From a virus (lineage: Duplodnaviria > Caudoviricetes), in IMG/VR virus record IMGVR_UViG_3300042975_000096: a stretch of DNA of 64,000 nucleotides. The stretch is one strand, 5' to 3'. The notes under the pieces were generated by a model. It made no database searches. It was given only the letters and a program-made list of their open reading frames with translations, and had not been told where the DNA came from. Positions 1,637-32,113 of this stretch are shown here, in pieces; positions within the stretch are counted from its first letter, which is position 1, and every line of letters begins with the position of its first letter. The position numbers and the translations under genes were made by a program.

Positions 1637-2035
1637 TTATATTCCTTTCATTAAAAATATTTTATTTAATAAATACCACTTATATTTTGTTTCCATATAT
1701 TGAACCAAATATTGTCTCAATTCATTATTTATATTTATTTTCGTTCCACGTAACATTGAATTTATATTTATAATAAATTCCTCATAAGTCATTTCATCGC
1801 TATTGAACCTATAATAGGATAAACCTTTTTTCTTTTTATTTGTAAGATTTGAAAAAGAAAAACGTATGAGAGTTGATTCAGAACCATATTCATTTAAATA
1901 CCCAAAAACATATGAAGCAATACAAACGCTATATAATGATTGTTTTGTTTGTATCTTTAATGTCAATTCATGTAATGCCCTATCATCATAGCTTACAGAA
2001 TAGCTATATAGTTCTTCACAAACACCATACTTCAT
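1637..2035 (-). CDS. FxxxG[ILV]-tail family protein; paralog of 2919..3317
   Basis: Ends KIFLMKGI; MKYGVCEE vs MKYGICDE and ELRQYLVQY vs ELREHLTQY. Confidence 0.85.
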   Translation of the reverse strand: MKYGVCEELYSYSVSYDDRALHELTLKIQTKQSLYSVCIASYVFGYLNEYGSESTLIRFSFSNLTNKKKKGLSYYRFNSDEMTYEEFIININSMLRGTKININNELRQYLVQYMETKYKWYLLNKIFLMKGI

Positions 2036-2038
2036 TTC

Positions 2039-2479
2039 TTATATCCCTACTTTTTTAAATAACGACCCTTTTATTTTATCCTTCGTAAAATACATATCCA
2101 TTATTTGTTCTACTTCTTTTCTAATTTCATTTTTGGTTTCATCATTAATAATGATATCATCTATATATTTATGAATGTTCTTTCTGAATTCTAAATCTTC
2201 AAATTCATTATTTTCTTCGTCATTAAATGCATAACTTCTTTTGTGCTCATAATAATAATTCGTCTTATTCTCTTTAGAAAAAGATTCATGGTTTGAATTA
2301 GTGTAAAACTGATAATAATTTATCTCTACACAATAATCTTTACTTAAATCTAAAGTGGAATCTTCAAAATAATATGCCAAATATAATTCCATAGTTATTT
2401 CAATTAATCCATTAAAATCGAAATAAAATGTTAAATGTCTATCATCATCTTCGGATTTCTTTGATAAATACATGCTCAT
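2039..2479 (-). CDS. FxxxG[ILV]-tail family protein
   Basis: Ends SLFKKVGI; own promoter at 2501-2529. Confidence 0.85.
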   Translation of the reverse strand: MSMYLSKKSEDDDRHLTFYFDFNGLIEITMELYLAYYFEDSTLDLSKDYCVEINYYQFYTNSNHESFSKENKTNYYYEHKRSYAFNDEENNEFEDLEFRKNIHKYIDDIIINDETKNEIRKEVEQIMDMYFTKDKIKGSLFKKVGI

Positions 2480-2536
2480 ATTTTTCTCCCCTTTTATTTA
2501 ATTATATCATAACTTTTCATTTTTGTCAATAAAAAT

Positions 2537-2568
2537 AAAAAAGCTAACCATAATTGTGGTTAGCTTTT
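2537..2568 (-). terminator. intrinsic terminator
   Basis: Hairpin AAGCTAACCA/TGGTTAGCTT followed by a T-rich tract on the minus strand. Confidence 0.75.
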
Positions 2569-2913
2569 AAACACCATCTGCCAAAAACAATATATGATTT
2601 ATTTTATTCTGATTCAATAATATCTGTTTCGCCAAATGTTTATCTCTCGAATCAAATAAATCTATTACCGTTTCTATAATATCACTCATAATATCATCTC
2701 TTACTGTTGATATCCATTCTGTCGTAAATGGGGCTTTGAATTCATTTTTATAATCAATATACCACATTAATCTTAATCGCCCTCGCAAATCAGATTTCTG
2801 TACATTATAAATGATATGTAATTCAATTCTTCTTTATAATTATTATTTTTCGGATTAGAATAAATAATGTTTACAATGTGTTCCTTGAAATCTTTTTTTG
2901 AATAGTAATACAT
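2567..2913 (-). pseudogene. frameshifted FxxxG[ILV]-tail family gene
   Basis: ATG at 2913 (MYYYSKKDFKEH...) stops after 46 codons; the C-terminal part 2567..2788 is in another frame and ends ILFLADGV. Confidence 0.6.
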
Positions 2914-2918
2914 TTTTA

Positions 2919-3317
2919 TTAAACCCCACTTTGTAAAAATATTTTATGATACATTAATCCCTTATATTTTTCTTTTACATATTGTGTTAAATGTTCTCGT
3001 AATTCACTTTCAATATCTATTTTTTCTCTGCTTAATATTTTTTCTAAATTCAAATCTAATTCTTTATCAATGAGCCTTTCTTGAAAAAAACTATAGTATA
3101 CAGATGTTATAACTCTTTTTGTTTTATCATCTTGAAAATAAAAACGTAAAAATACTAGTTTTTCACAAGTATTAATATACGAATTAATATTTAATTCAAT
3201 AATAACGTTATATGACATTTTTTTCGTTTTAATTAGTAATGTCGATTTATTATATATATTACTATCTTTATATTTGCAATCCTCTTGCTTTTCATCACAT
3301 ATTCCATATTTCATCAT
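2919..3317 (-). CDS. FxxxG[ILV]-tail family protein
   Basis: Ends KIFLQSGV. Confidence 0.85.
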   Translation of the reverse strand: MMKYGICDEKQEDCKYKDSNIYNKSTLLIKTKKMSYNVIIELNINSYINTCEKLVFLRFYFQDDKTKRVITSVYYSFFQERLIDKELDLNLEKILSREKIDIESELREHLTQYVKEKYKGLMYHKIFLQSGV

Positions 3318-3324
3318 ATTTCCT

Positions 3325-3705
3325 CTAAATTCCTACTTGTTGAATAATATATTTACGAGCTTGATTAATATAATTTTTTCCATAAATGTAATTGATGGTG
3401 GCATTAAAACATTTATCATATGTTTTATCCCATGCATGAATCATATTTTCCCATTTTTTCTTCTGCCTTAATTTAATTACAATGCTTTTTGTATCAAACC
3501 CTAGTTCCGTTTCTATAAACGTTTCTACCAAAGAATCCTTTTCACCATCATTCATTATAATGGTTAATGTGATTAATGCTAATCCTGGCTTAATTGAAAT
3601 TAATGTTACTTTCATTTTATTATCATTTTTTAATGGTACATATATTTCCATTTTCTCCATATCTTCGTTAATGCGTTCTTCCAAATCTTGCCTCACTGTT
3701 TTCAT
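3325..3705 (-). CDS. G[ILV]-tail family protein
   Basis: Ends YIIQQVGI. Confidence 0.8.
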   Translation of the reverse strand: MKTVRQDLEERINEDMEKMEIYVPLKNDNKMKVTLISIKPGLALITLTIIMNDGEKDSLVETFIETELGFDTKSIVIKLRQKKKWENMIHAWDKTYDKCFNATINYIYGKNYINQARKYIIQQVGI

Positions 3706-3951
3706 CTCTTTTCTTTTCGCATTAATATACTTTGGAACAATCCTTATTTTTTTCTTCCATCAGTAAGAAAATATAGTTTTTGGATTATTTCTCATACTTT
3801 AATGTGTATGTCCTAGTAACAGTAGCGGTTTTTTCCTACTGCTTATCTTCTACTTACACAATATATTGCAACTATCAATCTTACTCTTAGTAGTATATCA
3901 AAAAAATCTTTCTCTCTAACAACAAGAAAATATATTTCGTTTTCTTCTCTA

Positions 3952-4383
3952 TTAAATACCTATTTCTTTTTTGACTTCTTCCTCTATCATTCTTGTTAAA
4001 TAATCTAGGTTTTTGGTGATTGCTTTATCTTCAAATTGATTATATAATTTTTCCTTATCTTGCTCATTCATTTTATTTAGTATTTTGTGTATTTCATCTT
4101 CCCTATATTTAATGGTGGATGGCAATTGCTCCCAATTATTAAAATCTTCTCTCGCACGTCTTAATAATCTTTGGATATTATTGTTATATACAATATCCCC
4201 ATAAGCCCACATATCGTTATTTTTATAACTAAAATACATACATATGGATTTCGTTTTTAGGTCATATATGCTTAAAGTTAAATATATACAAAATGTCATT
4301 GTCTTATTTATTTCAATGGATATTTTTTTTGTGCATTCTTCTTTTGTTAATATTTTGTTTACATCCCAAAAGTTATTTCCCAT
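3952..4383 (-). CDS. G[ILV]-tail family protein
   Basis: Ends EVKKEIGI; RBS present. Confidence 0.8.
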   Translation of the reverse strand: MGNNFWDVNKILTKEECTKKISIEINKTMTFCIYLTLSIYDLKTKSICMYFSYKNNDMWAYGDIVYNNNIQRLLRRAREDFNNWEQLPSTIKYREDEIHKILNKMNEQDKEKLYNQFEDKAITKNLDYLTRMIEEEVKKEIGI

Positions 4384-4751
4384 TTCCTTCGCTCCCCTTT
4401 CATCATATCAGAATATTCTTCTTCCGTCGTTCTAGAACATAATTCTATGAATCGCTCTCTTTCTGCTTTCCTTAATATCGTTATATCATTTATCGCAGTT
4501 CGTATATCTTCAAATGATTCATAATTAAAAAACTTGCTTAAAAAATTATTATGCGCAGTAAATATTAATAAACGTACTTTTGGAGAAAATCCAAAAGTAG
4601 TATATATGTTCATATATATGTATTTCGTTCCTTCTGAAATAATTAACGTTGATTGTATCGTAAACTCTCCATCTTCTATATAGTCACTTACTGTTTTTAA
4701 ATGCCTATAATAATAAATTTCTTTTTTTATATGTACCCATTTCGTTTCCAT
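4359..4751 (-). CDS. hypothetical protein
   Basis: ORF with RBS AAGGGG; overlaps the next gene by 25 nt. Confidence 0.75.
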   Translation of the reverse strand: METKWVHIKKEIYYYRHLKTVSDYIEDGEFTIQSTLIISEGTKYIYMNIYTTFGFSPKVRLLIFTAHNNFLSKFFNYESFEDIRTAINDITILRKAERERFIELCSRTTEEEYSDMMKGERRKWEITFGM

Positions 4752-4781
4752 TTTTCTTGCCCCTTATTTGGAGATGAAGAA

Positions 4782-5255
4782 CTAATTGCCATGAAGTAAA
4801 AAAATTTCATGCATTAATGCTTTTACTGTGTTTTCATAATCTAAGTTCATTAATAGCTTTTTCGTTTCTCTTATCATATTATAAAAATGCTCTTGCTTTA
4901 CAATTCCTTTTTCTATTAGACCTTTATGTAATCTTTTCCTGGTTAAAATTAAACTCGTTATATCCCCTATCAGTTGAATCGGTAATAATTCTTCCTTTAC
5001 TTGATATTCTATTTTACTTTCTTCTATACTGTAATTAAATGTGCTCATCATTTCATGTATTTTTTTATCACCTATAATTACTCGTATCATTAATCCTTTA
5101 TATTCATAATAACGAATATAAATTTTTATTTCCCATTCTTCATATTGATATGATTTGCATGATTCTATTATGCTCCATCCTAATGGCTTTGAAGGTGTAA
5201 ATAATGTCGGCATAAGGTTCATATCCTCCGTTCTAGGGGTTATTTTATATCCCAT
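4782..5255 (-). CDS. FxxxG-tail family protein (variant)
   Basis: Ends EIFLLHGN. Confidence 0.8.
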   Translation of the reverse strand: MGYKITPRTEDMNLMPTLFTPSKPLGWSIIESCKSYQYEEWEIKIYIRYYEYKGLMIRVIIGDKKIHEMMSTFNYSIEESKIEYQVKEELLPIQLIGDITSLILTRKRLHKGLIEKGIVKQEHFYNMIRETKKLLMNLDYENTVKALMHEIFLLHGN

Positions 5256-5655
5256 ACTTTTTTATATAGGATTTTTTAACTGATTCATGTATGGATTTTA
5301 ATCTTCGTATTTCATTCTTTTTTTCTGTGGTTAATAAATCATTTAATTTCATCGTTCCTATAGTTTGCCCATTGGTCACTTCTAAATTCCATAACTCATT
5401 GAAATTAAATGGTTTTCCTTCTTTATCTAATGATGACAAAATTATCTTCTCTATTAGACTACTATCATATCTTTCATTCTTATATATAATTATAGAAGTG
5501 GATAATATACCTTCTTTCGGTGTTACTATACTTTCTATTAATATAGTATAATTCTCTCTTGCTTTCCATCCATCTATAATATAAAATCGTTCCCCATTCC
5601 ATACTTCTGTCCAATTGTTTTTGTTTACATTATATGTCGATATTCCAAATGCCAT
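5245..5655 (-). CDS. G[ILV]-tail family protein
   Basis: Ends SYIKKYGI. Confidence 0.8.
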   Translation of the reverse strand: MAFGISTYNVNKNNWTEVWNGERFYIIDGWKARENYTILIESIVTPKEGILSTSIIIYKNERYDSSLIEKIILSSLDKEGKPFNFNELWNLEVTNGQTIGTMKLNDLLTTEKKNEIRRLKSIHESVKKSYIKKYGI

Positions 5656-5919
5656 TCGTTACACCCCATATCGTTATATATATGCTATATAGATAATCCT
5701 ATATAATGTTCTTTTTTTGACCGGATTTTACTATATTTATTATAACATTTATAATGATTTTTGTCAACTAATTTTTAAAAATAATTGTTGACTTACTTAG
5801 ACCTTCATAGAGCGATTTTGTTTTATAGGGTATATAGTTGTATGGATTGTGTGCTTAAATGCTCTCTATGCTAATTCCTCGAAGTATTATCGCTATAGTA
5901 CGATTAATAAAAAAGAGAA

Positions 5920-6390
5920 CTGATTCAAAAAGTTCTCTTTTCTTTGTATATTTATTTTTCTTCCCCATGTCGCAAAAATAAATGAATTAGTATATATATA
6001 TACTAATTCTAAAATAGTGGATGATTGTTATAAAGTATATTTAGTGACTGAAAAATGGTTCTTATATATAAGTGAAATTATAAAGTACATGGATTCAAAA
6101 AGTGGAAGTACATAAGTAGCTGATTATATAAATAGAGAAGTATATAGACATAAAATAAAAAAGTGGAGGCAGATGGTAATATATTAAACTATATAGATTG
6201 ATTAATTTGTTTTGCATTATTTATAAAAGTATATAGAGTAAAAAATTCTATATAGAAGTGGATGATAAAAAAGTGGAGGTATATAAGCAAATAGATATAG
6301 GTTTATTAACCATGGATTCAAAAAAGTGTATAAGTGGAGAAGTATGAAGTGGATATGTATAAAGTAGAAGTGTATAAAAAAGTGGAGGAT
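5920..6390. repeat. non-coding region with ~8-10 dispersed (AAA)AGTGGA / GATTCAAAAAGT motifs
   Basis: e.g. tggattcaaaaagtggaag ~6090, aaaaaagtggagg ~6157/6267/6376, aagtggatgat ~6257; no ORF of 60 aa or more between 5655 and 6419. Confidence 0.65.
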
Positions 6391-6418
6391 AATTGTAATA
6401 TATCAAGTATAGGTAAAT

Positions 6419-7102: not shown

Positions 7103-7495
7103 TTATAATCCATAATTGATAAATGTTTCATGTTCTGAACATTTTGGAACAGATTCAAAAATATAATCAATTATATCATCGATTGTATTAAAAATTAAGT
7201 TATTGTATTTTTCTTCTAATACATTGCTTTTATCCGTTATTTTAGAATGAATTATTTTATAAAGCATATCTTTTTGTGCCAAAACAACCAATGGATTATA
7301 TATAAGATTGAGCATTACTCTGGTTTTATTTGGTAACATTATGGTTGTTTTAATTTTGATGCTATGACGTTCATTTAATGGTTCTTGAAAATGAATTTTA
7401 TCAATAATAACATCTATGCATTCCTTTTTATAATGAAATCCACAGCGTTTATAAACATCAATATTTGATTTTTCCTCTCTAATTATTTCATTCAT
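7103..7495 (-). CDS. FxxxG[ILV]-tail family protein
   Basis: Ends ETFINYGL. Confidence 0.8.
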   Translation of the reverse strand: MNEIIREEKSNIDVYKRCGFHYKKECIDVIIDKIHFQEPLNERHSIKIKTTIMLPNKTRVMLNLIYNPLVVLAQKDMLYKIIHSKITDKSNVLEEKYNNLIFNTIDDIIDYIFESVPKCSEHETFINYGL

Positions 7496-7893
7496 TATAA
7501 TCCAACCTTACGTAAATATTTTTGTTTAGCTTCTTCTATTAAAAATTCTTTATTCTTTTTCCATGTCGGAAATGCAAAATTGTAAATAAGATTATTAAAT
7601 TCTTGTTTGCTACCGAAATTATTTTGATGGTTATAATACATGAAACTTTTATATAATTCTTTTTCCAATTCGTTTTCATCTTTATTTATTTTTTTATAAG
7701 AAGTATATGATTGTTCAATGTCATTAACTTTTAATACCATTTTCATTGTCATTATGTTATTGGATACTCTCATTTTAATTAAAAGTCCAGCAACAACAGG
7801 AATCTTTATGTTTTTTTGAAAAAACGCAGAATGTTTTATTTCTTTTCTAAAAAATTTTTTAACAACAACGGTATAACAATTCAATCCAATCAC
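7495..7893 (-). CDS. G[ILV]-tail family protein
   Basis: Ends KYLRKVGL; promoter at 7907-7934. Confidence 0.8.
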   Translation of the reverse strand: MIGLNCYTVVVKKFFRKEIKHSAFFQKNIKIPVVAGLLIKMRVSNNIMTMKMVLKVNDIEQSYTSYKKINKDENELEKELYKSFMYYNHQNNFGSKQEFNNLIYNFAFPTWKKNKEFLIEEAKQKYLRKVGL

Positions 7894-7960
7894 CCTTTCA
7901 TTTATATTATATCATAACTTTATGTTATTGTCAATAATATAAAAAAATGGATTGTATAAA

Positions 7961-8371
7961 TTACAATCCATTGGTTATAAATATTTTTCGTTTCCATTCA
8001 AAAAAAGAAATATTATTAAACAATTCATTCATAAAAAGTTTAATGTCATTCTCTATTTGATGTTCTTCTAGTATTATTGTGGGTTTTATTTGGTTAAAAT
8101 CATCAAATAGTTGTTGCTGAAGATTGCAAATGGCATTAAAGTCAATCATGTTTCTATTAGCATCTGTAGAATTATGATTATGAATACGGTTATACAATAA
8201 ATATCTACTCATACGTGATACCGTTTTGAAAACACTTATAGAAATATTAAATCTTTTGTCAAACAATTCAATTTTATATATAAACAATCTGTCTATATTG
8301 TTTATTGTTACGATACCAGTTAAGGTATATTCATTTTTGCTTTCAGATTTCATTATTTGTTTTATTTTCAT
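7961..8371 (-). CDS. FxxxG[ILV]-tail family protein
   Basis: Ends KIFITNGL. Confidence 0.85.
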   Translation of the reverse strand: MKIKQIMKSESKNEYTLTGIVTINNIDRLFIYKIELFDKRFNISISVFKTVSRMSRYLLYNRIHNHNSTDANRNMIDFNAICNLQQQLFDDFNQIKPTIILEEHQIENDIKLFMNELFNNISFFEWKRKIFITNGL

Positions 8372-8373
8372 TA

Positions 8374-8835
8374 TTAGATGCCTACATATTGTGAAATAAG
8401 TTTTTTTAATTTTTTTTCATCATAATATTTTGTCATCAATTCTAAAAAACAATTATAGACAACAAAACCAATAAATTTAGAACTCATACAAGTTTTTTCA
8501 TTACAGTTTTTTACATTGAAAGACTGTAATGAATAATCAATGAATTTCAATAGGCTTTTATAATCAAAATCACTCAAATAATTAAACTCGTATCCATGTC
8601 CTTTATATTGCACCCGGTTTTTATCTAATACATTTGGTGTTACTTCAAAATAACATTGATAATGTTCTAATTCAACAAAATAAATAATAGAATACCCAAT
8701 TGTGAATTGAACTTCATCATTTTGTTTTATCTTACCTGTATATTTCACTCCAATATGGGTTAATTCATTTGGGTCAAATCCCATATATTTTTTTATTTTT
8801 CTAGTTCTAACGTTGGAAATATAAGTTCCATCCAT
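8374..8835 (-). CDS. G[ILV]-tail family protein
   Basis: Ends LISQYVGI. Confidence 0.85.
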   Translation of the reverse strand: MDGTYISNVRTRKIKKYMGFDPNELTHIGVKYTGKIKQNDEVQFTIGYSIIYFVELEHYQCYFEVTPNVLDKNRVQYKGHGYEFNYLSDFDYKSLLKFIDYSLQSFNVKNCNEKTCMSSKFIGFVVYNCFLELMTKYYDEKKLKKLISQYVGI

Positions 8836-8844
8836 AATTACACC

Positions 8845-9306
8845 TCAAATTCCGTTCATTCTTCGCTCATATGTTCTAAACTTTTTAATATCCCAAAATT
8901 TAGTATACCATTCGGACATTATTCTTTTTAATTCTAACTTCAGTGATTCACTAGAAAAACTTTCAGAAATTAAAGATTGGCTAGTTAAATATATATCGTT
9001 ATCTTTACATAACTCGCAAACGATGTTCATTAGATTGTCTATATTAATATTATCGCCATAATTAAATTTAATTGAAATCCACGCAACTGGATTGTCATTA
9101 TCTTCTTCAAAAAAATTAAAGTCTATCAGGTTTTGTGAACGATTTGCATCTATCATTAATATTGTTGTTTCTAATTTCATTTTTTTTCGTTCAGCCATTA
9201 TATCATTCATATCAGCATAATATAAATAAAATGTATATTCTTCTTTGATTATATTCGGAAAATGTTTAGAATTAACGTTTTTGTTTCTTTTTAGCATAAA
9301 TATCAC
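8845..9306 (-). CDS. G[ILV]-tail family protein
   Basis: Ends YERRMNGI. Confidence 0.8.
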   Translation of the reverse strand: MIFMLKRNKNVNSKHFPNIIKEEYTFYLYYADMNDIMAERKKMKLETTILMIDANRSQNLIDFNFFEEDNDNPVAWISIKFNYGDNINIDNLMNIVCELCKDNDIYLTSQSLISESFSSESLKLELKRIMSEWYTKFWDIKKFRTYERRMNGI

Positions 9307-10229: not shown

Positions 10230-10252
10230 TTCTTTCTTTTTTTTCTATTATA

Positions 10253-22728: not shown

Positions 22729-23000
22729 GATATTTTACTTATTTTTTAATTATAATTGGATGATATTTTACTTATTTTTTAATTATATTCAGATGTTTTT
22801 TAAACTTGATATTGAAAGGTTTTTTATATGTTTTTTAGATAATTTTTAAACTTGATATTTTACTTATTTTTTAATTATAATTGGATGATATTAAAAGACT
22901 TTTTTAAAAAATTTTATACTGTTTTTTATAATTATATTTGGATTGATATTAGATGTTTTTTAGATAATTTTTATATGTTTTTTAAACTTGATTTTATACT
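22729..23000. repeat. AT-rich non-coding direct-repeat cluster
   Basis: 26-bp GATATTTTACTTATTTTTTAATTATA at 22729, 22762 and 22854; also repeated TGTTTTTTAGATAATTTTT and AAACTTGAT. Confidence 0.8.
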
Positions 23001-23085
23001 ATATGATAATTTTAATTAAGATATAGTTTTCTATGTTCCATTTTTTGTATAATACACATCATTATATGTTCTAATTTTTGTATTC

Positions 23086-23535: not shown

Positions 23536-23859
23536 TTTTTATTTTTTCCTTTCTAGTCATTTTTCACTTTTAAAAAAATGACAAATATTTTTTTCATCTT
23601 CTACGTTTTCTAAGACAAAAAATCGTTTTTACTTAGAATATTTGCTCCATCAAACTGTAAAAGATTATAATTTACACTCACGGTTCTTACATTTATTACA
23701 GGAACTATATAATTAAGATATAGTTCCTTTTTACAGTCTATGTTCTTTGATGGTTGATAATTAGCGGATAAGTGCAAATATGAATAAAAAAATAAAAAAT
23801 AGGTTATTTTTTACTAAAATAATCATTTTACAATCCTTACGGGCGGTAAATAATTTTTA

Positions 23860-24408
23860 TTATAAAGCATTTAAATTAAACAAATCTTTCTTTACACGTG
23901 CCATATCAAAATACGCAATTTTATCACAAATCATTGCGCATAATGATTTAACTATCCATGCAGGTGGCAATTGTATACTGCTTTTATTTAATAATGACTC
24001 ATTATAATAAAACTCATGATTCATTTGCGTTGTATAATAGTTGAATAACGTATTACTATCCATTGTGTATTTATGAAAGGATTGTTCATCAGCGAATCCG
24101 ACATAAAATATATATTTTTTATTAAGATGATTTCTATAAAAAAAGGAATAAATATGGATTGTATTTCCTTTTTTCTTTTTCGTTTCCCAATAGAATATTG
24201 TTTCTACGTCCGCATGATAACGTTTAAGGCATTTCGGTTCAAAATATTTACCTGTAGCGTGTAACTCTCTATAAAAGGTCATATCAATGTCTTTTTCCGT
24301 ACACATATAACCTTCATAACGAATACAGGATTTATTTGTTATGAATCCCGTATTTAATACAGTCATTTTCAATTGATTTGTTTCTATATGACCCTCTAAA
24401 TTTAACAT
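23860..24408 (-). CDS. FxxxA[IL]-tail variant; paralog of 24429..24995
   Basis: Ends DLFNLNAL; PPAWIVK vs PPIWLVK. Confidence 0.85.
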   Translation of the reverse strand: MLNLEGHIETNQLKMTVLNTGFITNKSCIRYEGYMCTEKDIDMTFYRELHATGKYFEPKCLKRYHADVETIFYWETKKKKGNTIHIYSFFYRNHLNKKYIFYVGFADEQSFHKYTMDSNTLFNYYTTQMNHEFYYNESLLNKSSIQLPPAWIVKSLCAMICDKIAYFDMARVKKDLFNLNAL

Positions 24409-24428
24409 GATGATTATTCCCTCTTTAA

Positions 24429-24995
24429 TTATAATGCATTATGATTAAACAATTCCTTCTTTATATTATCCACATCAAAACGAGATGATTTATCATAAAT
24501 GACTCCACACATTAATTTTACTAGCCATATCGGTGGCACGTCAAATTGTTTTAATGGAGAATTATATATAGATGATTTATTATAATAAGAAGGTTCAATA
24601 TTTACCTCTTTATCGCGCTGATTCATATAATAATTGAATATTGCCTTAGTGCTCACCATATTATCATAGAACACTTGTTTGTTAGGGAAAGAAAAAGAAA
24701 TATGATATGTTTTATTTAGATAATCCCTATGAAAAAGGGCATCTAGGCGAATAGAATTTATATTGTGGTCTTGTTCTGTTGGTTCATAGACAAATTTCAA
24801 GGTCATGTGAGTACGATACTGCTTAAATTGTCTAGGTTCAATATAGTTAATAGATATTTGCAAAATCTTACTGAAAGCCGTATCTAATGAATTTTTCGCA
24901 TTAATTTTCAATTCATTATAAACACGTTCTTTATCGGTAATGAATTTTGTTTCTGTGACCGTTACATTACTAGGATTAAGTTCTATATTTCTCAT
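24429..24995 (-). CDS. FxxxA[IL]-tail variant
   Basis: Ends ELFNHNAL. Confidence 0.85.
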   Translation of the reverse strand: MRNIELNPSNVTVTETKFITDKERVYNELKINAKNSLDTAFSKILQISINYIEPRQFKQYRTHMTLKFVYEPTEQDHNINSIRLDALFHRDYLNKTYHISFSFPNKQVFYDNMVSTKAIFNYYMNQRDKEVNIEPSYYNKSSIYNSPLKQFDVPPIWLVKLMCGVIYDKSSRFDVDNIKKELFNHNAL

Positions 24996-25010
24996 TTATC
25001 TGCTCCATTT

Positions 25011-25412
25011 CTAAATAATACCGATATTTAAAAAAGCATAATGCTTTAATTCTTCTATAGGAAATGTTTGAAATATACGAATCAATTTATGAACAAAATC
25101 GGCATCAAATAACGGATTTGATGCATCGATTAAATGATTTCTAAATTCCTTTTGAAATGCAGAATCACAATCACAATAATTAAGGGAACACCAATGTGTA
25201 ATCCATTTTTCATTATATGGATGGATTAATGCAAAATACGATTGAGAAAACATTTTTTTTCGTGTAACGGGAGATAATTGATGAAATATATTTATATTGT
25301 TTTCAAATAGAACATCTATTCTGTATGGCATATGATTAATTCTAATTTGAAAAGATAAATCTATCACCAATTCGCTAGAATCACTAATCTCACATGAATA
25401 AATTTCAATCAT
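25011..25412 (-). CDS. FxxxG[ILV]-tail family protein
   Basis: Ends YAFLNIGII. Confidence 0.8.
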   Translation of the reverse strand: MIEIYSCEISDSSELVIDLSFQIRINHMPYRIDVLFENNINIFHQLSPVTRKKMFSQSYFALIHPYNEKWITHWCSLNYCDCDSAFQKEFRNHLIDASNPLFDADFVHKLIRIFQTFPIEELKHYAFLNIGII

Positions 25413-25429
25413 GAATTAATTCCCTTCTG

Positions 25430-25855
25430 TCACATCACGATAATGCCTAAATTCATAAAAAAATCATGTTTGAATTTTTTCAATGAGAATTTCATTAATT
25501 CCAATCGAAGTTCTTCTGCAAAAAACTCTGCTTCTTTGCACTCCAAATTTTTTACATACATGCTATGCTTGCAATTTTCCAAAAACATTTTTTTATTTTC
25601 TAGATTTTCTAGTGATAAATACGGAATAATAACAGAAACAACGGGTGCTTCAACATCATTATCATTAACTTTATTTAAGGATATATGTGAAACAAAAAGC
25701 GGATTTTCTAGTATACGATTTTGATTCAATAGAAAAAGGTTATAATTAAAATCCAAACGATAATGATAGTTGTGATTCATAATTGTTATTTTTGAACCTA
25801 TCGCACAAGAAAAAATGCCATTATGATTCATTTTAAATGAAGCAATATGATACAT
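25430..25855 (-). CDS. FxxxG[ILV]-tail family protein (extended)
   Basis: Ends DFFMNLGIIVM. Confidence 0.8.
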   Translation of the reverse strand: MYHIASFKMNHNGIFSCAIGSKITIMNHNYHYRLDFNYNLFLLNQNRILENPLFVSHISLNKVNDNDVEAPVVSVIIPYLSLENLENKKMFLENCKHSMYVKNLECKEAEFFAEELRLELMKFSLKKFKHDFFMNLGIIVM

Positions 25856-26632
25856 TCAAACCCCTTCTCTCGAAAACAATAATCGAATATAATTTTGTTC
25901 CAATGTGGGGATTTTTGTTTTTAAATATTCAATCAAATCTAATTTTACACGATTCAATATACGCATTTTGAAATCCCTTTTTGGCAGATAGGGATTATCT
26001 GAACCAATCGTAAATTGGTTATTTTCTATAGTGGAATGAATGAAATCATTTAAGGCAATAGAAAAATTCATATCTTCAAAAATAGGAAATGCTTGTTGTG
26101 AGGACTTAGATGGAAATCTAAGAAATTTATGTTGATAATCAAAAACAGAAGCATTTATCTCTCTATCATATAAAATGTAAAATAATTTTTTATATCGTTC
26201 ATTTCGACTAAAATGATGATTAGAACTTTTTTCCACAATATTTGCAAATGAGCTAACATCAAATCCATATGAACCATTTGATTGATAAAGAAAAGGGTCT
26301 TTAATTAAGTCCTGCAATTCGTCAAAATCTTCTTCATGATGCAAATTGATGTTCAGTATATCCATGCTTATTCTGCCCTCTGCAAATGCATATTTCTGTA
26401 CGTTTTTGTTTTTACCATCCTTACAATATGCTTTCAAGCTGTTTATAATAGATACAACATCTGAAAAATTTAAATAACTAGGATATTCGTTATATTTCAT
26501 GTTTTCCGCATACGCTATGTTTTCTGAAAACAGACTGTTGTTCTTATATAAGAAACCTTCATTGATTACGGCTAACATGGTATAGCCTTTATCTCGAAAC
26601 AAAAACATTTGTTGTGATATATATGAACTCAT
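25856..26632 (-). CDS. FxxxG[ILV]-tail family protein (long form)
   Basis: Ends LLFSREGV. Confidence 0.85.
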   Translation of the reverse strand: MSSYISQQMFLFRDKGYTMLAVINEGFLYKNNSLFSENIAYAENMKYNEYPSYLNFSDVVSIINSLKAYCKDGKNKNVQKYAFAEGRISMDILNINLHHEEDFDELQDLIKDPFLYQSNGSYGFDVSSFANIVEKSSNHHFSRNERYKKLFYILYDREINASVFDYQHKFLRFPSKSSQQAFPIFEDMNFSIALNDFIHSTIENNQFTIGSDNPYLPKRDFKMRILNRVKLDLIEYLKTKIPTLEQNYIRLLFSREGV

Positions 26633-26647
26633 AACATTAAATTCTCC

Positions 26648-27298
26648 TTAAATTCCATTTGTTTTTCGATATTGTTTCAAAATCACTTGTTGCAGGGATG
26701 GCATTTTCGATTCTAAAAAAGCAGACATCTCTTTGTTGATTTGATTCAATCTATGTATTTTAAAACTATTTTCCATAAGTAATGCATCGTGATTCAATAA
26801 TGTTTCGGAATGGGTTTTACCTGTCAAACAATTATTTAGTGAGCTATTCATTTTTCGGCTTATTTTATACAATATATCCATAAGGTTAGTTGCTCCCTCA
26901 TATAATGAATAGGATTCATTTATTATTGTCCATGATAGTTTTTTTTGATAGGACTTTAATGATTCACAATTAAATGAATTTGTAAAGAAATTTGCAATAG
27001 TATCCCAACGCAAGGACTGATTTTTTGTGCTATTATAATTAATAAAAATTGCATTGTTTGATAATTCCAATACTCGTTTTTCTGTATATGCATTACAGAC
27101 CACATCATAACGATAACAGTCACATCGAATAGCTAATTTATGAGAACGAATAGGTAGTTTTTCATTTGTCCAAAAAGAAGAATAGGTTGTATCTACACGT
27201 GCTATACTATCATAAGTTATAAAAAACACAAACAGATATTTATATCCTAATGATTGATAAGGAACGCATTGTATAATAAGGTGCTCACTCGGTTTCAT
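26648..27298 (-). CDS. G[ILV]-tail family protein; paralog of 27998..28711
   Basis: Ends QYRKTNGI; LGY.Y/F.F...TY.S and YR.D.. shared. Confidence 0.85.
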   Translation of the reverse strand: MKPSEHLIIQCVPYQSLGYKYLFVFFITYDSIARVDTTYSSFWTNEKLPIRSHKLAIRCDCYRYDVVCNAYTEKRVLELSNNAIFINYNSTKNQSLRWDTIANFFTNSFNCESLKSYQKKLSWTIINESYSLYEGATNLMDILYKISRKMNSSLNNCLTGKTHSETLLNHDALLMENSFKIHRLNQINKEMSAFLESKMPSLQQVILKQYRKTNGI

Positions 27299-27301
27299 TT
27301 T

Positions 27302-27739
27302 TTATAATCCTCCCACTAAAAACCAACTATGCATAAGCATTTTTCCTCGATTTTTATTGCAAATGAAAGACATTATCATTTTTATAAAATCGTGTTTATA
27401 TTTATATTCTCTCATTCGTTTATCAAAAACGAAACAGTTATATTTTTCTTTATTTTTAAATTTACATTTTTCTGTCTTAAAATCAATTAGTTTATTTTCC
27501 CAAATAACAGGCATATGGAGTGTATGCATACACAAAGATTGCTTCCGATTCTGACGTTTTTTTAAGGAATATAAAGATACTGTACCGGAAGCAAGAGACA
27601 TGTTTGAAAATATATTATATACTAATATATATCTATCATTCAATTCTTCTAATGCATTAATAATAACCTTGTAGTGTATGGATATATATTCACCATGTAT
27701 TAATTTAATGTTAGGCATGTTATTTTTTTCAATAAACAC
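27302..27739 (-). CDS. FxxxG[ILV]-tail family protein; paralog of 28716..29165
   Basis: Ends SWFLVGGL; FDKR.RE/KE.KYK..FI shared. Confidence 0.85.
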   Translation of the reverse strand: MFIEKNNMPNIKLIHGEYISIHYKVIINALEELNDRYILVYNIFSNMSLASGTVSLYSLKKRQNRKQSLCMHTLHMPVIWENKLIDFKTEKCKFKNKEKYNCFVFDKRMREYKYKHDFIKMIMSFICNKNRGKMLMHSWFLVGGL

Positions 27740-27997
27740 AATTACAATCCTTCTTCTGTAAATAATATATGATGAAAAAAAGATGCATTATAGACTGAAC
27801 TCAAAAATATATAGATACCGTCTAATACTAAATGCAAAGATTCCAACCGCTTATTAACTATATAATAGCACATTTTTTAAAAATTGTCAACAAATAAAAA
27901 ACAAACCTGTGTTCTGAGCGAATGGAGGTTTGTTTTTTTATTATTCATTTTTTCAAGTTCGTTATCTAACACTTTTTCAAATGCTGAATTATCATAA

Positions 27998-28711
27998 TTA
28001 AATTCCATTTGTATTTCGATATCGTTTTTTGAATAAATCAACTATCACAGGTATTTGATTCAATACGAATTGATTTACGGTATCTTGAATTTTAATGAAC
28101 GCTTTATCTCTAGCACAAAGTTCAAAACTCAAAATATTATTATAATTGATAGGGTTAATTAAAGTATATGGTCTACATTTAATTTCATCTTCTATGTGTT
28201 TTTGAAATTCATTTACATCAATTAATCCATGTTCCAATCGACTTTCCAACATATCAAAAAAACAATATTTTAGGTGTTCTTTTGTAACAGAAGAAACACT
28301 ATTTTTTCCATTAAAAACATCCTTAAAATTTAATAGGAAATCACGTATTATATTTAGTCGTTCCATATCAGATTTTGTTCCTAGAGTAAATGACTCTATG
28401 TGTTCAAATCCATTATAATCTCCAAACATAGGTTCTTTTATTAAATTTAATAAACGTTTCTTTAATGTAACGTTTTTAATTATATCCACGCGATAAATAA
28501 TACATGACGTTTGAACCAAATGGGAATAATCATAAAAACCATCATGATGGTTTTTAAGAAGTCGAAGTTTATTGAAATAAGTCGGAAAACTACTATAACT
28601 AAGACAGCTATTATATGTCAATCGAAACATAACGACAAATTCATATCCTAATACTTTTAAATAATCGCATAAAAAAATCACATGTGCATTTGGTTGATAA
28701 AAACTTTTCAT
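27998..28711 (-). CDS. G[ILV]-tail family protein
   Basis: Ends RYRNTNGI. Confidence 0.85.
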   Translation of the reverse strand: MKSFYQPNAHVIFLCDYLKVLGYEFVVMFRLTYNSCLSYSSFPTYFNKLRLLKNHHDGFYDYSHLVQTSCIIYRVDIIKNVTLKKRLLNLIKEPMFGDYNGFEHIESFTLGTKSDMERLNIIRDFLLNFKDVFNGKNSVSSVTKEHLKYCFFDMLESRLEHGLIDVNEFQKHIEDEIKCRPYTLINPINYNNILSFELCARDKAFIKIQDTVNQFVLNQIPVIVDLFKKRYRNTNGI

Positions 28712-28715
28712 TGTT

Positions 28716-29165
28716 TTATAATCCTCGATTCAAAAAGAATAATCGTGCTACTTGTTTTCGTCGTTCCTCATTATTTATAAAATTATCAATTATATCAATA
28801 AATTCGTTTTTATATTTAAATTCTTTTCTCCGTTTATCGAATTTTAATTTGTTATACTCTATTGCTAATTGAAATGATTGCATTTCTTGACTGTTATCCA
28901 TCATTCTATTTCTCCAAAATGCGTGCATATATAATGGACATAGTAACACCTGTTGTTTACTTGTATAGTCATAAATTAAAATTTCAGCAGGAATAATAAC
29001 GCTATTTTCAATACAGTCCACATATTTATTTCTGTTTTTTATATAGATGATTACTGCATATGTTCGGTTCAATTTTTCTGAAGAAAAATATCCAGCACAT
29101 TTAACGTTAAAATAAAAACCGTCTAAAATGCTATAAGGAACGATTCTCATACCTTCAATAACCAT
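28716..29165 (-). CDS. FxxxG[ILV]-tail family protein
   Basis: Ends LFFLNRGL. Confidence 0.85.
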   Translation of the reverse strand: MVIEGMRIVPYSILDGFYFNVKCAGYFSSEKLNRTYAVIIYIKNRNKYVDCIENSVIIPAEILIYDYTSKQQVLLCPLYMHAFWRNRMMDNSQEMQSFQLAIEYNKLKFDKRRKEFKYKNEFIDIIDNFINNEERRKQVARLFFLNRGL

Positions 29166-29168
29166 TTA

Positions 29169-29627
29169 TCATGCTCCTATTTGTTTGAATAACGCAGACC
29201 TGAAATCTTCTAAATCATCCCTATAAAAAAATGCTTTATCTTTTCTCATTAGTTTAATCGCGTTATAAAAATCATTAACAGATATGTTGAAATCTATATG
29301 TGAATATAAATTATGTTTGCCAAAGAAGCAATTGATAACTGTTTCACCGATATATTTTACATCTTCAATTTCAAACAATTTAACATCGTAACCGCCTTGT
29401 ATTTTCTTATCGGATATATACTGATTTTGTACATCATCGTCTATGAATTTTTCAATATTTCCATCATCAAACGCTGAATCTACATATTTAAAAACAAATG
29501 TTTTAATCACTAAATCGTCATTCTTTAATTTGTTTAATATGGCTATCGTGATAATATATATCCACTTTTCATTTTTTACGTTTACTGTTCCATAATAATC
29601 AGCTAATTTATCCTTCATAACCTTCAC
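29169..29627 (-). CDS. FxxxG-tail family protein; paralog of 29624..30091
   Basis: Ends ALFKQIGA; FDDG..EKF and GET.I.CF shared. Confidence 0.85.
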   Translation of the reverse strand: MKVMKDKLADYYGTVNVKNEKWIYIITIAILNKLKNDDLVIKTFVFKYVDSAFDDGNIEKFIDDDVQNQYISDKKIQGGYDVKLFEIEDVKYIGETVINCFFGKHNLYSHIDFNISVNDFYNAIKLMRKDKAFFYRDDLEDFRSALFKQIGA

Positions 29628-30091
29628 ACCCCACTTCTTTTGAATTGTGCAGTTTTAAGTTTTTCTAAATCATTTCTATAAAGGAATTCCTTATGTTTTC
29701 GCAATTCCTTAATCACTTGACAAAGACTTGCATTGGAAAGATGAAAATTACTTGTGCGGTCAATAAGTTCATCATTTTCATCTAAAAAACAACTTATAGC
29801 TGTTTCTCCCACATTACGTATTTCTTCTGCTCTAAATATTTGTGAAGTGAATCCACCCAAAATTTTTTCATGTGCTATATTCCAACGACGAACATTATAA
29901 TCTGTGAATTTTTCAACATCGCCATCATCGAATGAAAATTCAATGTATCTAAATATAAGTGATTCAACGTTCAACAAATAATTTAATTTAGGATTGTTTA
30001 ATGCATTAACATTAATGACATACATCCATTTATCATGAAACATATCGATTGTTCCACAAAATGAAGCCAATTTATTATTCATGATAATCAC
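29624..30091 (-). CDS. FxxxG[ILV]-tail family protein
   Basis: Ends AQFKRSGV. Confidence 0.85.
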   Translation of the reverse strand: MIIMNNKLASFCGTIDMFHDKWMYVINVNALNNPKLNYLLNVESLIFRYIEFSFDDGDVEKFTDYNVRRWNIAHEKILGGFTSQIFRAEEIRNVGETAISCFLDENDELIDRTSNFHLSNASLCQVIKELRKHKEFLYRNDLEKLKTAQFKRSGV

Positions 30092-30621
30092 ACTCCATTC
30101 GTCATAAATGTAATATGACGAATTTTTTCATCATCATATACACGATTCAAAAAATTATCAACTCCGACCATTGCTAAATCCAAAGACTTTAATCGATTAT
30201 CAATAGCTTCTTTTGATGTTTTGTAAACATTTCTTTTACAAGCGGATTGTTTTGTGCGTTTGATACTACTACGAATCAATGATTTTTTGTTTCTTATCTT
30301 TTTCATTAAATCATAAGTATTACCTAAAAATGATAATTGATTCTCACTGTAATATGAAACATATCCTTTTTCAAATCCACCATGAGTAAAATTATAAGAT
30401 AAAAAAACGCTAGTTTTATTATAATCAATATATGCCTGTATGTGTCCATTATATAAAAAACCATCAAAATTAAATGAAAAGCTGAAATCAAAATAATCAA
30501 TACATTTCATTTCAATTAGTTTATCTATTCCGGTATGGTTATAGCACACACTACCTTCCTTCATTTTGTATGTTCTTTGTGTGTTTTCATGCATATTAGT
30601 GTTTCTCTCTATTCTTATCAT
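30088..30621 (-). CDS. FxxxG[ILV]-tail family protein
   Basis: Ends ITFMTNGV. Confidence 0.85.
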   Translation of the reverse strand: MIRIERNTNMHENTQRTYKMKEGSVCYNHTGIDKLIEMKCIDYFDFSFSFNFDGFLYNGHIQAYIDYNKTSVFLSYNFTHGGFEKGYVSYYSENQLSFLGNTYDLMKKIRNKKSLIRSSIKRTKQSACKRNVYKTSKEAIDNRLKSLDLAMVGVDNFLNRVYDDEKIRHITFMTNGV

Positions 30622-30730
30622 TTTAACTCCCTCTCTTTTTCAAAATCTTAATTATATAATAGCACATTTTTAAAAAATTGTCAATAAATATATAAAAAAT
30701 GGAATGTCTATTGCTAAACATTCCATTTTT

Positions 30731-30916
30731 TTATTTTCTTTTTTTTAATTCCGCATCCAATACTTTTTCAAATTCAGAATCTTCATAATTAAACATATCA
30801 CCATTATAATTATATTTAAAATTACTGATAAGCTGAAAAAATCTAGTATCAGGATAATCTTCCCATAAGATTTTAATTTTTTCTAAAATACGCTCAATAC
30901 GTTTTTCATCACGCAT
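30731..30916 (-). CDS. small DUF1040/YihD-like phage protein
   Basis: MRD.KRI..IL.KI..LW..YPD.RF.QL pattern. Confidence 0.65.
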   Translation of the reverse strand: MRDEKRIERILEKIKILWEDYPDTRFFQLISNFKYNYNGDMFNYEDSEFEKVLDAELKKRK

Positions 30917-30918
30917 GA

Positions 30919-31218
30919 TTAAATTCCCTCCAATTTCTTATATTCAACATGCATATTATGAAGGTGTTTCTCAATAATTTTAATTAATGTTAGTTGTATC
31001 TCTGGTTCGGATATTACATGTTTAATATCGTCAAAAACTTTTTTTGTTTCCACTTCATCATAAATGGAAAACGTATATTCTTTAGAAGCCGAATTCAACA
31101 TTTCTTCTAATAAAATATTTACTTCTCCACTTCGCAATAATCTGAAAAACAATGCATACGTAAAATTTTGTTCCATTTTCATATAAACTACTTTATTTTT
31201 TTTGTTAACTGCATCCAT
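30919..31218 (-). CDS. G[ILV]-tail family protein
   Basis: Ends EYKKLEGI. Confidence 0.8.
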   Translation of the reverse strand: MDAVNKKNKVVYMKMEQNFTYALFFRLLRSGEVNILLEEMLNSASKEYTFSIYDEVETKKVFDDIKHVISEPEIQLTLIKIIEKHLHNMHVEYKKLEGI

Positions 31219-31235
31219 AATAACATCCTTTCTAA

Positions 31236-31661
31236 TTACACGCCATAAATGGAAAAGATAATATGATATATGTATTCCATCTGCTTCATAGCATATTTAT
31301 CAAAAAACAAGAAATTTATAATTTTGTGTTCTTTTTGAAATGCAAGTACGTTTTTTATCATACAATATAACAATTGATTTCTATCAAACACTTCATTAAA
31401 TAAAAGCGAATCTAATTTCAAACAATTACTCTTATTTATAAAATTGGACATTCTTAGGTGTATGACAAATATATTATATGTAAAACAATGAAACAAGGTT
31501 AAATTCAATGTATAACTGTTTGTATCATATCCTTCTATAATTATAAAATTGATGTGTAAAAAAATAGATAGTTGATAATAAAAATAATGTTTTCTAAACA
31601 ACTCATTTCCCGAAAACGAAAATGTTCTTTCATCAAAAATACCCGTATCTAAAAAGTTCAT
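31236..31661 (-). CDS. FxxxG[ILV]-tail family protein
   Basis: Ends IIFSIYGV. Confidence 0.8.
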   Translation of the reverse strand: MNFLDTGIFDERTFSFSGNELFRKHYFYYQLSIFLHINFIIIEGYDTNSYTLNLTLFHCFTYNIFVIHLRMSNFINKSNCLKLDSLLFNEVFDRNQLLYCMIKNVLAFQKEHKIINFLFFDKYAMKQMEYIYHIIFSIYGV

Positions 31662-31666
31662 AATAA

Positions 31667-32113
31667 CTATATCCCTCTCGCCATAAATAAATGATGTCGC
31701 AATTCACAATTAATGTTATTCATTTTGTGGTGCTTTAATTGATTGATAATGCTATTTATATGACCTTTATTAACATCAGTTAACGAATACGTGCTTTTGG
31801 CAAATAAATATAAGGACATGAGTTGTTCAAGCCATGCATGAAAATCACATGATGGAACAAAAGAATCAATATTTCTATCTTCATTATCCATATACGTTTG
31901 CCTATATATCCAGTTGGTTTCTTCTCCGTCTATATACAACTTATATACAAAAGTTATCCTGTTTTGAGGTTCAAAATACATACATGTGTATCGCAATAAA
32001 TATTTTGTTTCTTCAAATTCAAATGAAACCTCAATTTTTATGATTTTCCCTGCTTCCATTACCCAATCATTATATCCATTTTTAACAGAAATCACAATGT
32101 TCATATATTTCAC
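31667..32113 (-). CDS. FxxxG[ILV]-tail family protein
   Basis: Ends HLFMARGI. Confidence 0.85.
   Translation of the reverse strand: MKYMNIVISVKNGYNDWVMEAGKIIKIEVSFEFEETKYLLRYTCMYFEPQNRITFVYKLYIDGEETNWIYRQTYMDNEDRNIDSFVPSCDFHAWLEQLMSLYLFAKSTYSLTDVNKGHINSIINQLKHHKMNNINCELRHHLFMARGI

Follow-up and report, generated by a model that had tools for sequence, protein, structure and literature searches.

Why do dozens of phage proteins that otherwise have little sequence in common end in the same few residues? The question is raised by a 64,000-nucleotide stretch of DNA (hereafter, the window) from a virus of the Caudoviricetes (IMG/VR record IMGVR_UViG_3300042975_000096). An earlier note had described 43 such ORFs, ending in F-x-x-x-G-[ILV]-stop, and had interpreted them as a library of adaptors in which variable N-terminal domains carry a free C-terminal docking tail. 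By mechanical ORF listing and extraction of C-termini, the tail is real and the count becomes 45: the ORFs lie on the minus strand between 1637 and 32113 and end in Gly/Ala, a hydrophobic residue and a stop. The two additions are a G-M variant (4359-4751) and a 43-aa remnant (27742-27873), and the total would be about 48 if ORFs just left of the window were counted. We assign a probability of roughly 0.6 to the reading that the 45 ORFs are one lineage-specific family, in which the shared tail represents a helix end with its cap, inherited and kept mainly for folding. The family genes and the region that interrupts them are arranged as follows.

1637-5655, minus strand: left block A, nine family genes assigned by C-termini (1637-2035, 2039-2479, 2567-2788, 2919-3317, 3325-3705, 3952-4383, 4359-4751, 4782-5255, 5245-5655); variant endings GM at 4359-4751 and GN at 4782-5255
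7103-9306, minus strand: left block B, five family genes assigned by C-termini (7103-7495, 7495-7893, 7961-8371, 8374-8835, 8845-9306)
9438-15403, minus strand: interruption by unrelated tail-less genes, from C-termini, Pfam and a ligase tblastn (a Cys-rich-tailed ORF, an NAD-dependent DNA ligase at 10253-12211, DUF3841, YopX and small membrane-like ORFs)
15543-19695, minus strand: right block, units 1-2, eight genes assigned by C-termini (15543-16049, 16090-16584, 16600-17067, 17070-17600, 17605-18042, 18064-18573, 18575-19072, 19117-19695); variant ending AI at 19117-19695
19698-22504, minus strand: duplicated three-gene cassette, from collinear nucleotide identity (19698-20111, 20115-20570, 20572-21021; copy 21163-21594, 21597-22058, 22061-22504)
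23086-27873, minus strand: right block, middle, nine genes assigned by C-termini (23086-23535, 23860-24408, 24429-24995, 25011-25412, 25430-25855, 25856-26632, 26648-27298, 27302-27739, remnant 27742-27873); variant endings AL at 23860-24408 and 24429-24995, GII at 25011-25412, GIIVM at 25430-25855
27998-32113, minus strand: right block, distal, eight genes assigned by C-termini (27998-28711, 28716-29165, 29169-29627, 29624-30091, 30088-30621, 30919-31218, 31236-31661, 31667-32113); variant ending GA at 29169-29627

The pattern first described stands with slightly different numbers: an exact G-[ILV]-stop in 37 of the 45 ORFs rather than 36, eight variants rather than seven (AL twice, AI, GA, GN, GM, GII, GIIVM), and Phe at position -6 in 33 rather than 32. 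Gly occupies -2 in 42/45. Conservation is not confined to the last 6-8 residues; it keeps a fixed register as far back as -15 at least, and a weaker signal reaches -24. Position -11 is hydrophobic in 95% of tail ORFs, -7 in 72% and -14/-15 in about 60%, while a basic residue stands at -10 in 63% and at -9 in 72% (His at -9 in 15/45). The tail is the end of an amphipathic terminal helix of 15-25 residues. LigA, DUF3841 and YopX, identified by Pfam, lack it when their C-termini are read, as had been noted before.

Could the motif be a by-product of gene packing, in which each duplication carried along a ribosome-binding or translational-coupling junction and the peptide itself was unselected? 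The next start lies 0-9 nt away at 27/45 junctions, the Gly codon at these is GGA or GGG in 24/27, and junction sequences are weakly repeated (repeat D8). Where genes abut, the Gly codon has been recruited as a Shine-Dalgarno element, to judge from the higher frequency of GGR at tight junctions than among the Gly codons at loose ones (9/15; p = 0.049); this agrees with the earlier observation that it often doubles as the next gene's RBS. It is not the cause of the motif. G-[ILV] endings, expected from composition in 0.8% of proteins, occur in 36 of 57 ORFs of at least 60 aa in the region and are absent from the 60 ORFs to the right of 32 kb (Fisher p = 1.2e-15). The enrichment holds when RBS overlap is controlled for, since none of 24 non-tail genes whose stop is separated from the following start by no more than 12 nt ends this way. 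Conversely, the next start is at least 15 nt away in 18 tail genes and at least 40 nt away in nine, and several tail genes end at terminators. One terminator-like hairpin (2568-2539) directly follows the tail gene 2567-2788; another (7972-7946) overlaps the end of 7961-8371, where no downstream RBS is therefore served. The last residue is encoded by nine different NTN codons and the Gly by all four of its codons, a signature of selection at the amino-acid level, and no RBS reaches as far as Phe -6 or positions -11 to -7. The junction and codon controls largely refute a nucleic-acid-level cause, which we regard as the least probable of the explanations considered, and they bear out the earlier claim of selection on the protein.

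How did so many copies arise? The repeats indicate that the block grows by tandem segmental duplication. The three-gene cassette 19698-21021 and its copy 21163-22504 are collinear over about 1.25 kb at 64-69% nucleotide identity (repeats D4 and D9), with protein pairs 52%, 39% and 37% identical. A two-gene cassette (26648-27739) recurs as 27998-29165, with pairs at 25% and 39%. Further paralogs are the tandem pair 29169-29627/29624-30091 (37%), 1637-2035/2919-3317 (33%), the adjoining 15543-16049/16090-16584 and the two AL variants (34%), and the remnant at 27742-27873 matches the C-terminus of 30088-30621. In units 1-2 of the right block, the last ~45 residues align with those of sequence cluster A. 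Pair identity falls from 52% to 25% and then below detection. In the 13 pairs that can be shown to be paralogs, identity is 53% over the final 15 residues and 33% over the remainder (p = 1.3e-7); by this measure the tail is the slowest-evolving part of the proteins. With sequences otherwise saturated (10-20% identity), inertia cannot have kept the motif. When the tail was trimmed, HMM iteration and hhalign gave no significant similarity between clusters, and sub-threshold phmmer links showed a weak, possibly compositional excess (3.4% vs 0.6-0.7% at E <= 0.1).

What, then, is conserved? AlphaFold2 models were made for two members, 20572-21021 (pLDDT 79.6, pTM 0.72) and 2919-3317 (pLDDT 79.8, pTM 0.70), which represent two of about 30 sequence clusters and have no BLAST or phmmer similarity to each other. 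Both are predicted to form an N-terminal meander of five to six antiparallel beta strands followed by two to three helices, and their lists of the 50 best neighbours among 48,161 PDB representatives have 28 entries in common. The two models are not fully independent, because the alignment behind the second included other paralogs, cluster A among them. The common neighbours are weak: levivirus coats, xanthine-oxidase-family FAD-domain modules and polo boxes. In both models the terminal helix (pLDDT 79-88) has no preceding linker and ends, by DSSP, exactly at -3, with the Gly and the last hydrophobic residue non-helical.

The Schellman loop is the commonest helix C-cap and carries a hydrophobic patch between C3 and C''. 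Judged by sequence, F-x-x-x-G-[ILV] matches its signature (C3 hydrophobic, C' Gly, C'' hydrophobic). A Schellman model peptide likewise ends ...X-A-A-X-G-X (PMC9951308). Spacing and residue classes are identical, and the predicted helix stops at Ccap (-3) in both models. The phage tail differs in that the cap, whose geometry here is predicted, is also where the polypeptide ends in 37/45 proteins, follows a conserved basic pair, and is conserved above every other feature across a whole multigene family. Phe at C3 would pack against Ile, Leu or Val at C'' folding back over a left-handed Gly at C', so closing a fixed-register amphipathic helix (hydrophobic -15/-14, -11, -7 and -6; basic -10/-9), and both Phe and the last residue are probably buried. 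The motif would be conserved mainly because a common scaffold needs the cap to fold and be stable, and where genes abut, use of the Gly codon as the next Shine-Dalgarno element would reinforce ending exactly at C''.

These models do not support the adaptor library. In them the tail forms the final turn of a long helix together with its cap rather than a free appendage, and unrelated domains bearing a common tag sit poorly with uniform lengths (median 149 aa, IQR 136-164; other ORFs 98 aa, IQR 74-143) and with two sequence-dissimilar members that share one beta-meander-plus-helices architecture and largely the same neighbours. The outcome that would have undone the library, a single ordinary fold in which the tail is a core helix, is seen in part, as a shared architecture in two modelled clusters; all clusters may share it. 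Most likely, these are fast-diverging copies of one protein with a helix that needs a Gly cap, not carriers of a portable docking tag.

Docking through the capped helix, as a role common to all members, is nonetheless worth weighing. In a family that arose by descent, each member could bind one common hub through the capped helix, its basic pair and its free hydrophobic C-terminus. The hub might be an AAA+ protease or unfoldase of the host, RNA polymerase, a PDZ-like reader of tails or a phage assembly. The stop falls strictly at C'' even at operon ends and ahead of terminators, the tail evolves slowest, and surface exposure might be expected of the basic pair; neither this pair nor the exact stop is obviously explained by a plain cap, which leaves room for a shared functional interaction. 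SspB-type ClpX-binding tails, however, follow a long disordered linker, whereas the phage tail runs on from a well-modelled helix. The specificity domain plus short conserved C-terminal element of the earlier model resembles SspB and also SPO1 Gp53, a phage early protein that is an adaptor-like modulator of the host protease ClpC (PMC6873191). The sole similarity of the family to SspB or Gp53 that was detected is a PADLOC hit of one member to the SspB model, at noise level (E = 0.0045), and Pfam identifies no protease, PDZ or unfoldase gene, nor any other candidate for the hub, in the window. Intact intra-operon members tolerate one or three residues beyond C'' (GII, GIIVM) or Ala at C', which fits a cap better than a receptor that reads the carboxylate, and one ends in a non-hydrophobic residue (GN). 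Because the generic capping signature fully explains the motif, and the tail is not detectable outside this phage lineage, we consider docking unlikely, if the foremost of the alternatives. Were it true, the paralogs would be an adaptor or effector library, or would have timed degradation in common.

Two further uses of the helix can be envisioned. It could be a homo- or hetero-oligomerisation interface, with paralogs pairing as levivirus coat dimers interlock their helices; the amphipathic a/d-like spacing at -14, -11 and -7 and the presence of these obligate dimers among the best, though weak, structural neighbours are consistent with this, and we give it a slim chance. Alternatively, it could take early proteins to the membrane in the manner of MinD or FtsA. 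The hydrophobic, basic-basic, x, hydrophobic-Phe pattern near the extreme C-terminus resembles a MinD-type targeting helix in general character. A membrane helix, however, requires no invariant Gly at -2 and no fixed end point, hydrophobic residues are not a consistent feature of positions -5 to -3, and the helix is predicted with good confidence within a folded domain, without a preceding linker. Membrane targeting therefore seems very improbable.

We return to the reading of one family with a capped helix. Searches of Pfam, PHROGs, NCBIfam, PADLOC and PDB sequences returned noise-level hits only, in keeping with the earlier claim that the family is undescribed, and the best reading is of an orphan family of early genes, amplified in tandem, with strain variants as its only relatives in Pfam, PHROGs or other databases. 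Early expression is suggested by sites found by pattern matching only:

2501-32157, minus strand: 11 consensus sigma-A-type promoter-like sites heading gene blocks
Left sites (first-hexamer start to second-hexamer end): 2529-2501, 5767-5739, 7934-7906, 9393-9365
Right sites: 16083-16055, 19080-19052, 21069-21041, 22567-22539, 27890-27862, 30684-30656, 32157-32129

Each matches TTGACA-17-TATAAT at 11 or 12 of 12 positions, and most carry an extended TG as well. The coding strand holds all 11; ten are intergenic, and the site at 19080-19052 runs into the 5' end of the longest ORF at 18575-19072. Their flanks are themselves repeated (repeats D2, D3, D5, D6 and D10).

The host-takeover module of Bacillus phage SPO1 is a cluster of 26 small early genes (PMC6873191). 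Like it, this locus has many small, functionally uncharacterised genes in one contiguous block on a single strand, in short units behind promoter-like sites of the host sigma-A type, in a low-GC Firmicute-type phage. To our knowledge, the SPO1 genes are mostly unrelated to each other, whereas here most seem to be paralogs that belong to a single family and share a C-terminal helix; no sequence relationship to any PHROG was found. As a family of divergent paralogs, the locus recalls the poxvirus Bcl-2-like and ASFV MGF families, sequence-divergent but fold-conserved multigene families of large eukaryotic viruses. Those have other folds, but there too a small scaffold is tandemly amplified, diverges fast, is known mainly by structure or a short signature, and has a presumed role in host manipulation. 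The phage family would consist of small alpha+beta proteins (about 130-170 aa) encoded in an early region, driven by host promoters, in a large low-GC phage, amplified by tandem and segmental duplication and then diverged until the C-terminal helix was almost the sole recognisable part. Its members may be early host-takeover or anti-defence effectors, with specificity residing on the variable beta-sheet and loop surfaces.

We put at about 0.6 the probability that the genes carrying the F-x-x-x-G-[ILV]-stop tail are an orphan family of early genes, amplified in tandem, in which the conserved C-terminus is where a scaffold helix ends in a Schellman cap. A mechanical ORF list and extraction of all minus-strand C-termini place the tail on 45 minus-strand ORFs between 1637 and 32113 (the family), and reproduce nearly every number in the earlier note's description of them. 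Thirty-seven of the 45 end exactly in G-[ILV]-stop; the eight variants end in AL (twice), AI, GA, GN, GM, GII and GIIVM. Numbering back from the stop, with -1 as the last residue, Gly is at -2 in 42/45 members and Ala in 3/45, and Phe is at -6 in 33/45. The enrichment of the motif, which that note had proposed checking, is present with RBS overlap controlled. Among ORFs of at least 60 aa, 36 of 57 in the 1637-32113 region have the G-[ILV] ending, versus none of the 60 ORFs right of it (Fisher p = 1.2e-15), and the ending is expected from composition in 0.8% of proteins. Judged by C-termini and Pfam, the tail is absent from the NAD-dependent DNA ligase, DUF3841 and YopX genes of the unrelated insert that splits the family block at 9.4-15.4 kb.

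Overlap between the Gly codon and the RBS of the following gene was a caveat to this motif. The next start lies within 9 nt in 27 tail genes, and the Gly codon there is GGA or GGG in 24/27, versus 9/15 where the gap is at least 15 nt (p = 0.049). Because GGA/GGG is preferred where the next start is this close, the codon has been co-opted as a Shine-Dalgarno element, and in our main reading it secondarily serves as an RBS where family genes abut. Several observations nonetheless show that selection acts on the peptide. The next start is at least 15 nt away in 18 tail genes and at least 40 nt away in nine; terminator-like hairpins (2568-2539 and 7972-7946) end two tail genes; and the G-[ILV] ending occurs in 0/24 tightly packed non-family genes. 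Nine different NTN codons encode the last residue, Gly is encoded by all four of its codons, and Phe(-6) and positions -11 to -7 fall outside any RBS. Overlap thus fails to account for the tail, and we give next to no credence to a purely nucleic-acid cause.

The conservation extends upstream of the tag. When members are aligned by anchoring on the Gly, position -11 is hydrophobic in 95%, and basic residues occupy -10 in 63% and -9 in 72% (His at -9 in 15 members). Hydrophobic residues recur at -14/-15 (about 60%), -7 (72%), -6 (81%) and -1 (98%), -13 and -17 are polar, and a fainter periodicity reaches -24. Because this fixed-register pattern runs well beyond the tag, the conserved element is, judged by its residues, an amphipathic helix of 15-25 residues rather than a short free peptide. 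Two members were modelled with AlphaFold2:

AlphaFold2 models of two family members
Model 1: 20572-21021 (-), 149 aa; MSA of 9 paralogs; pLDDT 79.6, pTM 0.72; six strands between residues 5 and 73; helices 81-106, 112-131 and 133-147
Model 2: 2919-3317 (-), 132 aa; MSA of 36 paralogs; pLDDT 79.8, pTM 0.70; five strands between residues 14 and 78; helices 85-97 and 104-130

The Schellman loop is the commonest C-cap and is biased to a hydrophobic C3-C'' patch, and the model peptides used for it end ...X-A-A-X-G-X (PMC9951308). In the common loop, hydrophobic residues at C3 and C'' touch, and C' is Gly; the tail, hydrophobic(-6)-x-x-x-Gly(-2)-hydrophobic(-1), has the same signature. In both models DSSP places the last helical residue precisely at -3 (Ccap) and leaves the Gly and the last residue non-helical, so that the Gly found at -2 in 42 of the 45 members would stand at C', right after the helix. 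The hydrophobic pair at C3 and C'' (i, i+5) is present in the sequence at -6 and -1, and the patch between them is predicted.

Both models, which represent two of about 30 clusters, consist of a beta meander followed by C-terminal helices. Neither BLAST nor phmmer detects similarity between the two proteins; 28 of their top 50 structural neighbours are common to both (48,161 PDB representatives searched), and the MSA behind model 2 took in the other paralogs, among them cluster A, the sequence cluster that includes the model 1 protein. The strands of model 2 are plausible judged by its own sequence. Common neighbours include levivirus coat proteins, xanthine-oxidase-family FAD-domain modules, polo boxes and gC1qR. 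A hydrophobic-periodicity predictor, which is suggestive only and conflicts with AlphaFold2 in places, scored the N-terminal parts of the family as 42% strand-like and 15% helix-like; for other ORFs the figures were 29% and 26%. ESM Atlas single-sequence models of two members were unusable (pLDDT 0.31-0.37), and feature-based matches were returned for only one of the two, all scoring below 0.85.

These models bear on the proposal of the earlier note that the tail is a docking tag in an adaptor library, which lost ground here. In both models the terminal helix runs unbroken into the tail (residues 133-147 in model 1 and 104-130 in model 2, pLDDT 79-88). The predicted absence of a linker and the predicted architecture common to both modelled members argue against docking, as do intact members with an extended tail. 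In an SspB-type adaptor, a flexible linker sets the docking peptide apart from the folded domain, whereas the helix leading to the family tail is predicted to be continuous. A class II PDZ ligand has the form hydrophobic-x-hydrophobic-COOH with an obligatory free carboxylate; the tail is hydrophobic at -1 in 98% of members but at -3 in only 42%, and two intact members extend past the motif. A Pfam search found no hub candidate for the tail peptide within the 64-kb window. Docking keeps some weight because two features exceed a minimal cap, namely the paired basic residues at -10/-9 and the strictness with which members stop at C'', operon ends included, but we consider a docking or adaptor-library role unlikely.

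It is unlikely, too, that the capped helix itself, with its conserved basic pair, invariant Gly and a free C-terminus that must be hydrophobic, is a shared docking element by which at least 45 diversified early proteins of one phage engage a single hub, or each other. Under that reading, the hub could be a host unfoldase/protease, RNA polymerase or phage assembly, and the phage would encode an adaptor or effector library built on one scaffold. Self-association through the terminal helix is very unlikely. Membrane targeting is most improbable: MinD/FtsA-type targeting helices are C-terminal, amphipathic, lipid-binding and detached from the folded domain, and the tail helix has a similar amphipathic, basic character but is predicted to lie within the domain instead.

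Common descent is directly visible in part of the family. The cassette at 19698-21160 is copied as 21163-22600 (64-69% nucleotide identity; protein pairs 52%, 39% and 37% identical), a two-gene cassette at 26648-27739 occurs again at 27998-29165, and several tandem pairs are 25-37% identical. A 43-aa remnant at 27742-27873 resembles the end of 30088-30621, and promoter regions in the block are repeated as well. Duplication within the block is ongoing, as attested by cassette copies and tandem pairs whose proteins are 25-52% identical, and paralogs grade without a break from 52% identity to none that can be detected. Over 13 pairs whose paralogy is demonstrable, identity is 53% in the last 15 residues versus 33% elsewhere (p = 1.3e-7); as the slowest-evolving part of the protein, the tail is therefore expected to stay recognisable longest as divergence proceeds. 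Protein lengths are uniform (median 149 aa, IQR 136-164). We found no significant similarity outside the tail linking all members: BLAST clusters hold only 2-5 members, HMM iteration grew no further than 6 members when the tail was included and 5 when it was trimmed, and hhalign comparing cluster A, with 20 residues trimmed, to all other family members gave no signal above non-family controls. A weak excess of sub-threshold phmmer links between members remains. Variation among strains is uninformative, with 2 variable positions among the last 15 residues and 18 in the other 138. One protein from a 1071-nt metagenome contig (P0008) is a 196-aa variant corresponding to 19698-21021; its N-terminal 100 or so residues are those of the 20572-21021 product, fused in frame to the C-terminal part of the protein from 19698-20111, and it keeps the tail. 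It is either a natural chimera, made by deletion between two family genes, or an artefact of assembly.

Searches beyond the window returned little. Pfam, PHROGs, NCBIfam and PADLOC scans of 44 members gave isolated matches only (E >= 2e-4), none in more than two members, and the best hit of a PDB sequence profile search was at noise level (E 0.0085). Homologue searches with cluster A and a 258-aa member recovered nothing but near-identical strain variants from metagenome assemblies, which leaves too little depth for alignments or dN/dS. A 42-residue C-terminal profile of all 45 members had 0 matches at E <= 0.001 among 1.84 billion representatives; because a profile this short cannot reach significance, the result carries no weight on absence elsewhere. 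Neither megablast against GenBank phages, with 17 kb and 20 kb of the window as queries, nor an IMG/VR scan with the ligase found a relative, and a literature search on comparable phage multigene families found nothing useful.

GC content in the family block is 25-28%, or 23-29% taken over 1-32000, against 29-34% to the right (32000-64000); the step coincides with the tail-gene boundary. Every gene in the block is on one strand, and the genes are arranged in short units, each preceded by a promoter-like site that matches TTGACA-17-TATAAT at 11-12 of 12 positions, often with an extended TG. Because these consensus promoter-like sites head each unit, they suggest host-RNAP-driven and presumably early expression. 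Expression of this kind would parallel the host-takeover module of SPO1 (PMC6873191). One such site, 19080-19052, overlaps the 5' end of ORF 18575-19072 (-) as called in its longest form; paralog alignment suggests that this gene really starts at an internal ATG, some 19 codons further in. Other features of the window, which also has an IS200-type Y1 transposase match, are as follows:

5993-6406: a unit containing AAAAAAGTGGAGG occurs four times at spacings of about 110 nt, within the family block but in a gap with few genes (5656-6418); possibly a regulatory or iteron-like array
9438-10229 (-): 263-aa ORF with a C-terminal Cys-Asp/Cys-Asn repeat tail
22727-23030: degenerate 122-nt repeat units with plus-strand promoter-like hexamers, in a 580-nt gene-free gap (22504 to 23086)
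51042-52318 (-): TnpB/IS605-type ORF (Pfam OrfB_IS605, Cas12f1-like TNB)
51042-51097: Rfam Transposase-1 RNA match (46.4 bits), directly downstream of the TnpB/IS605-type ORF

If the tail is indeed a Schellman cap closing a scaffold helix, the tag would be ordinary protein chemistry, and a new targeting system would not be worth pursuing absent further evidence. Where seemingly "unrelated" proteins have a short conserved C-terminal signature, it can be all that still shows of their common descent, and a comparison with generic capping motifs ought to precede any proposal of docking. The remaining interest is the family itself, about 45-48 orphan paralogs over roughly 24 kb of phage early region. 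Fast-diverging tandem families of this kind are typical of arms-race effectors in large eukaryotic viruses; to our knowledge, a comparable family of this scale has rarely been documented in phages. Under the capped-helix reading, its paralogs would still be duplicating and quickly diverging on a common small alpha+beta scaffold.
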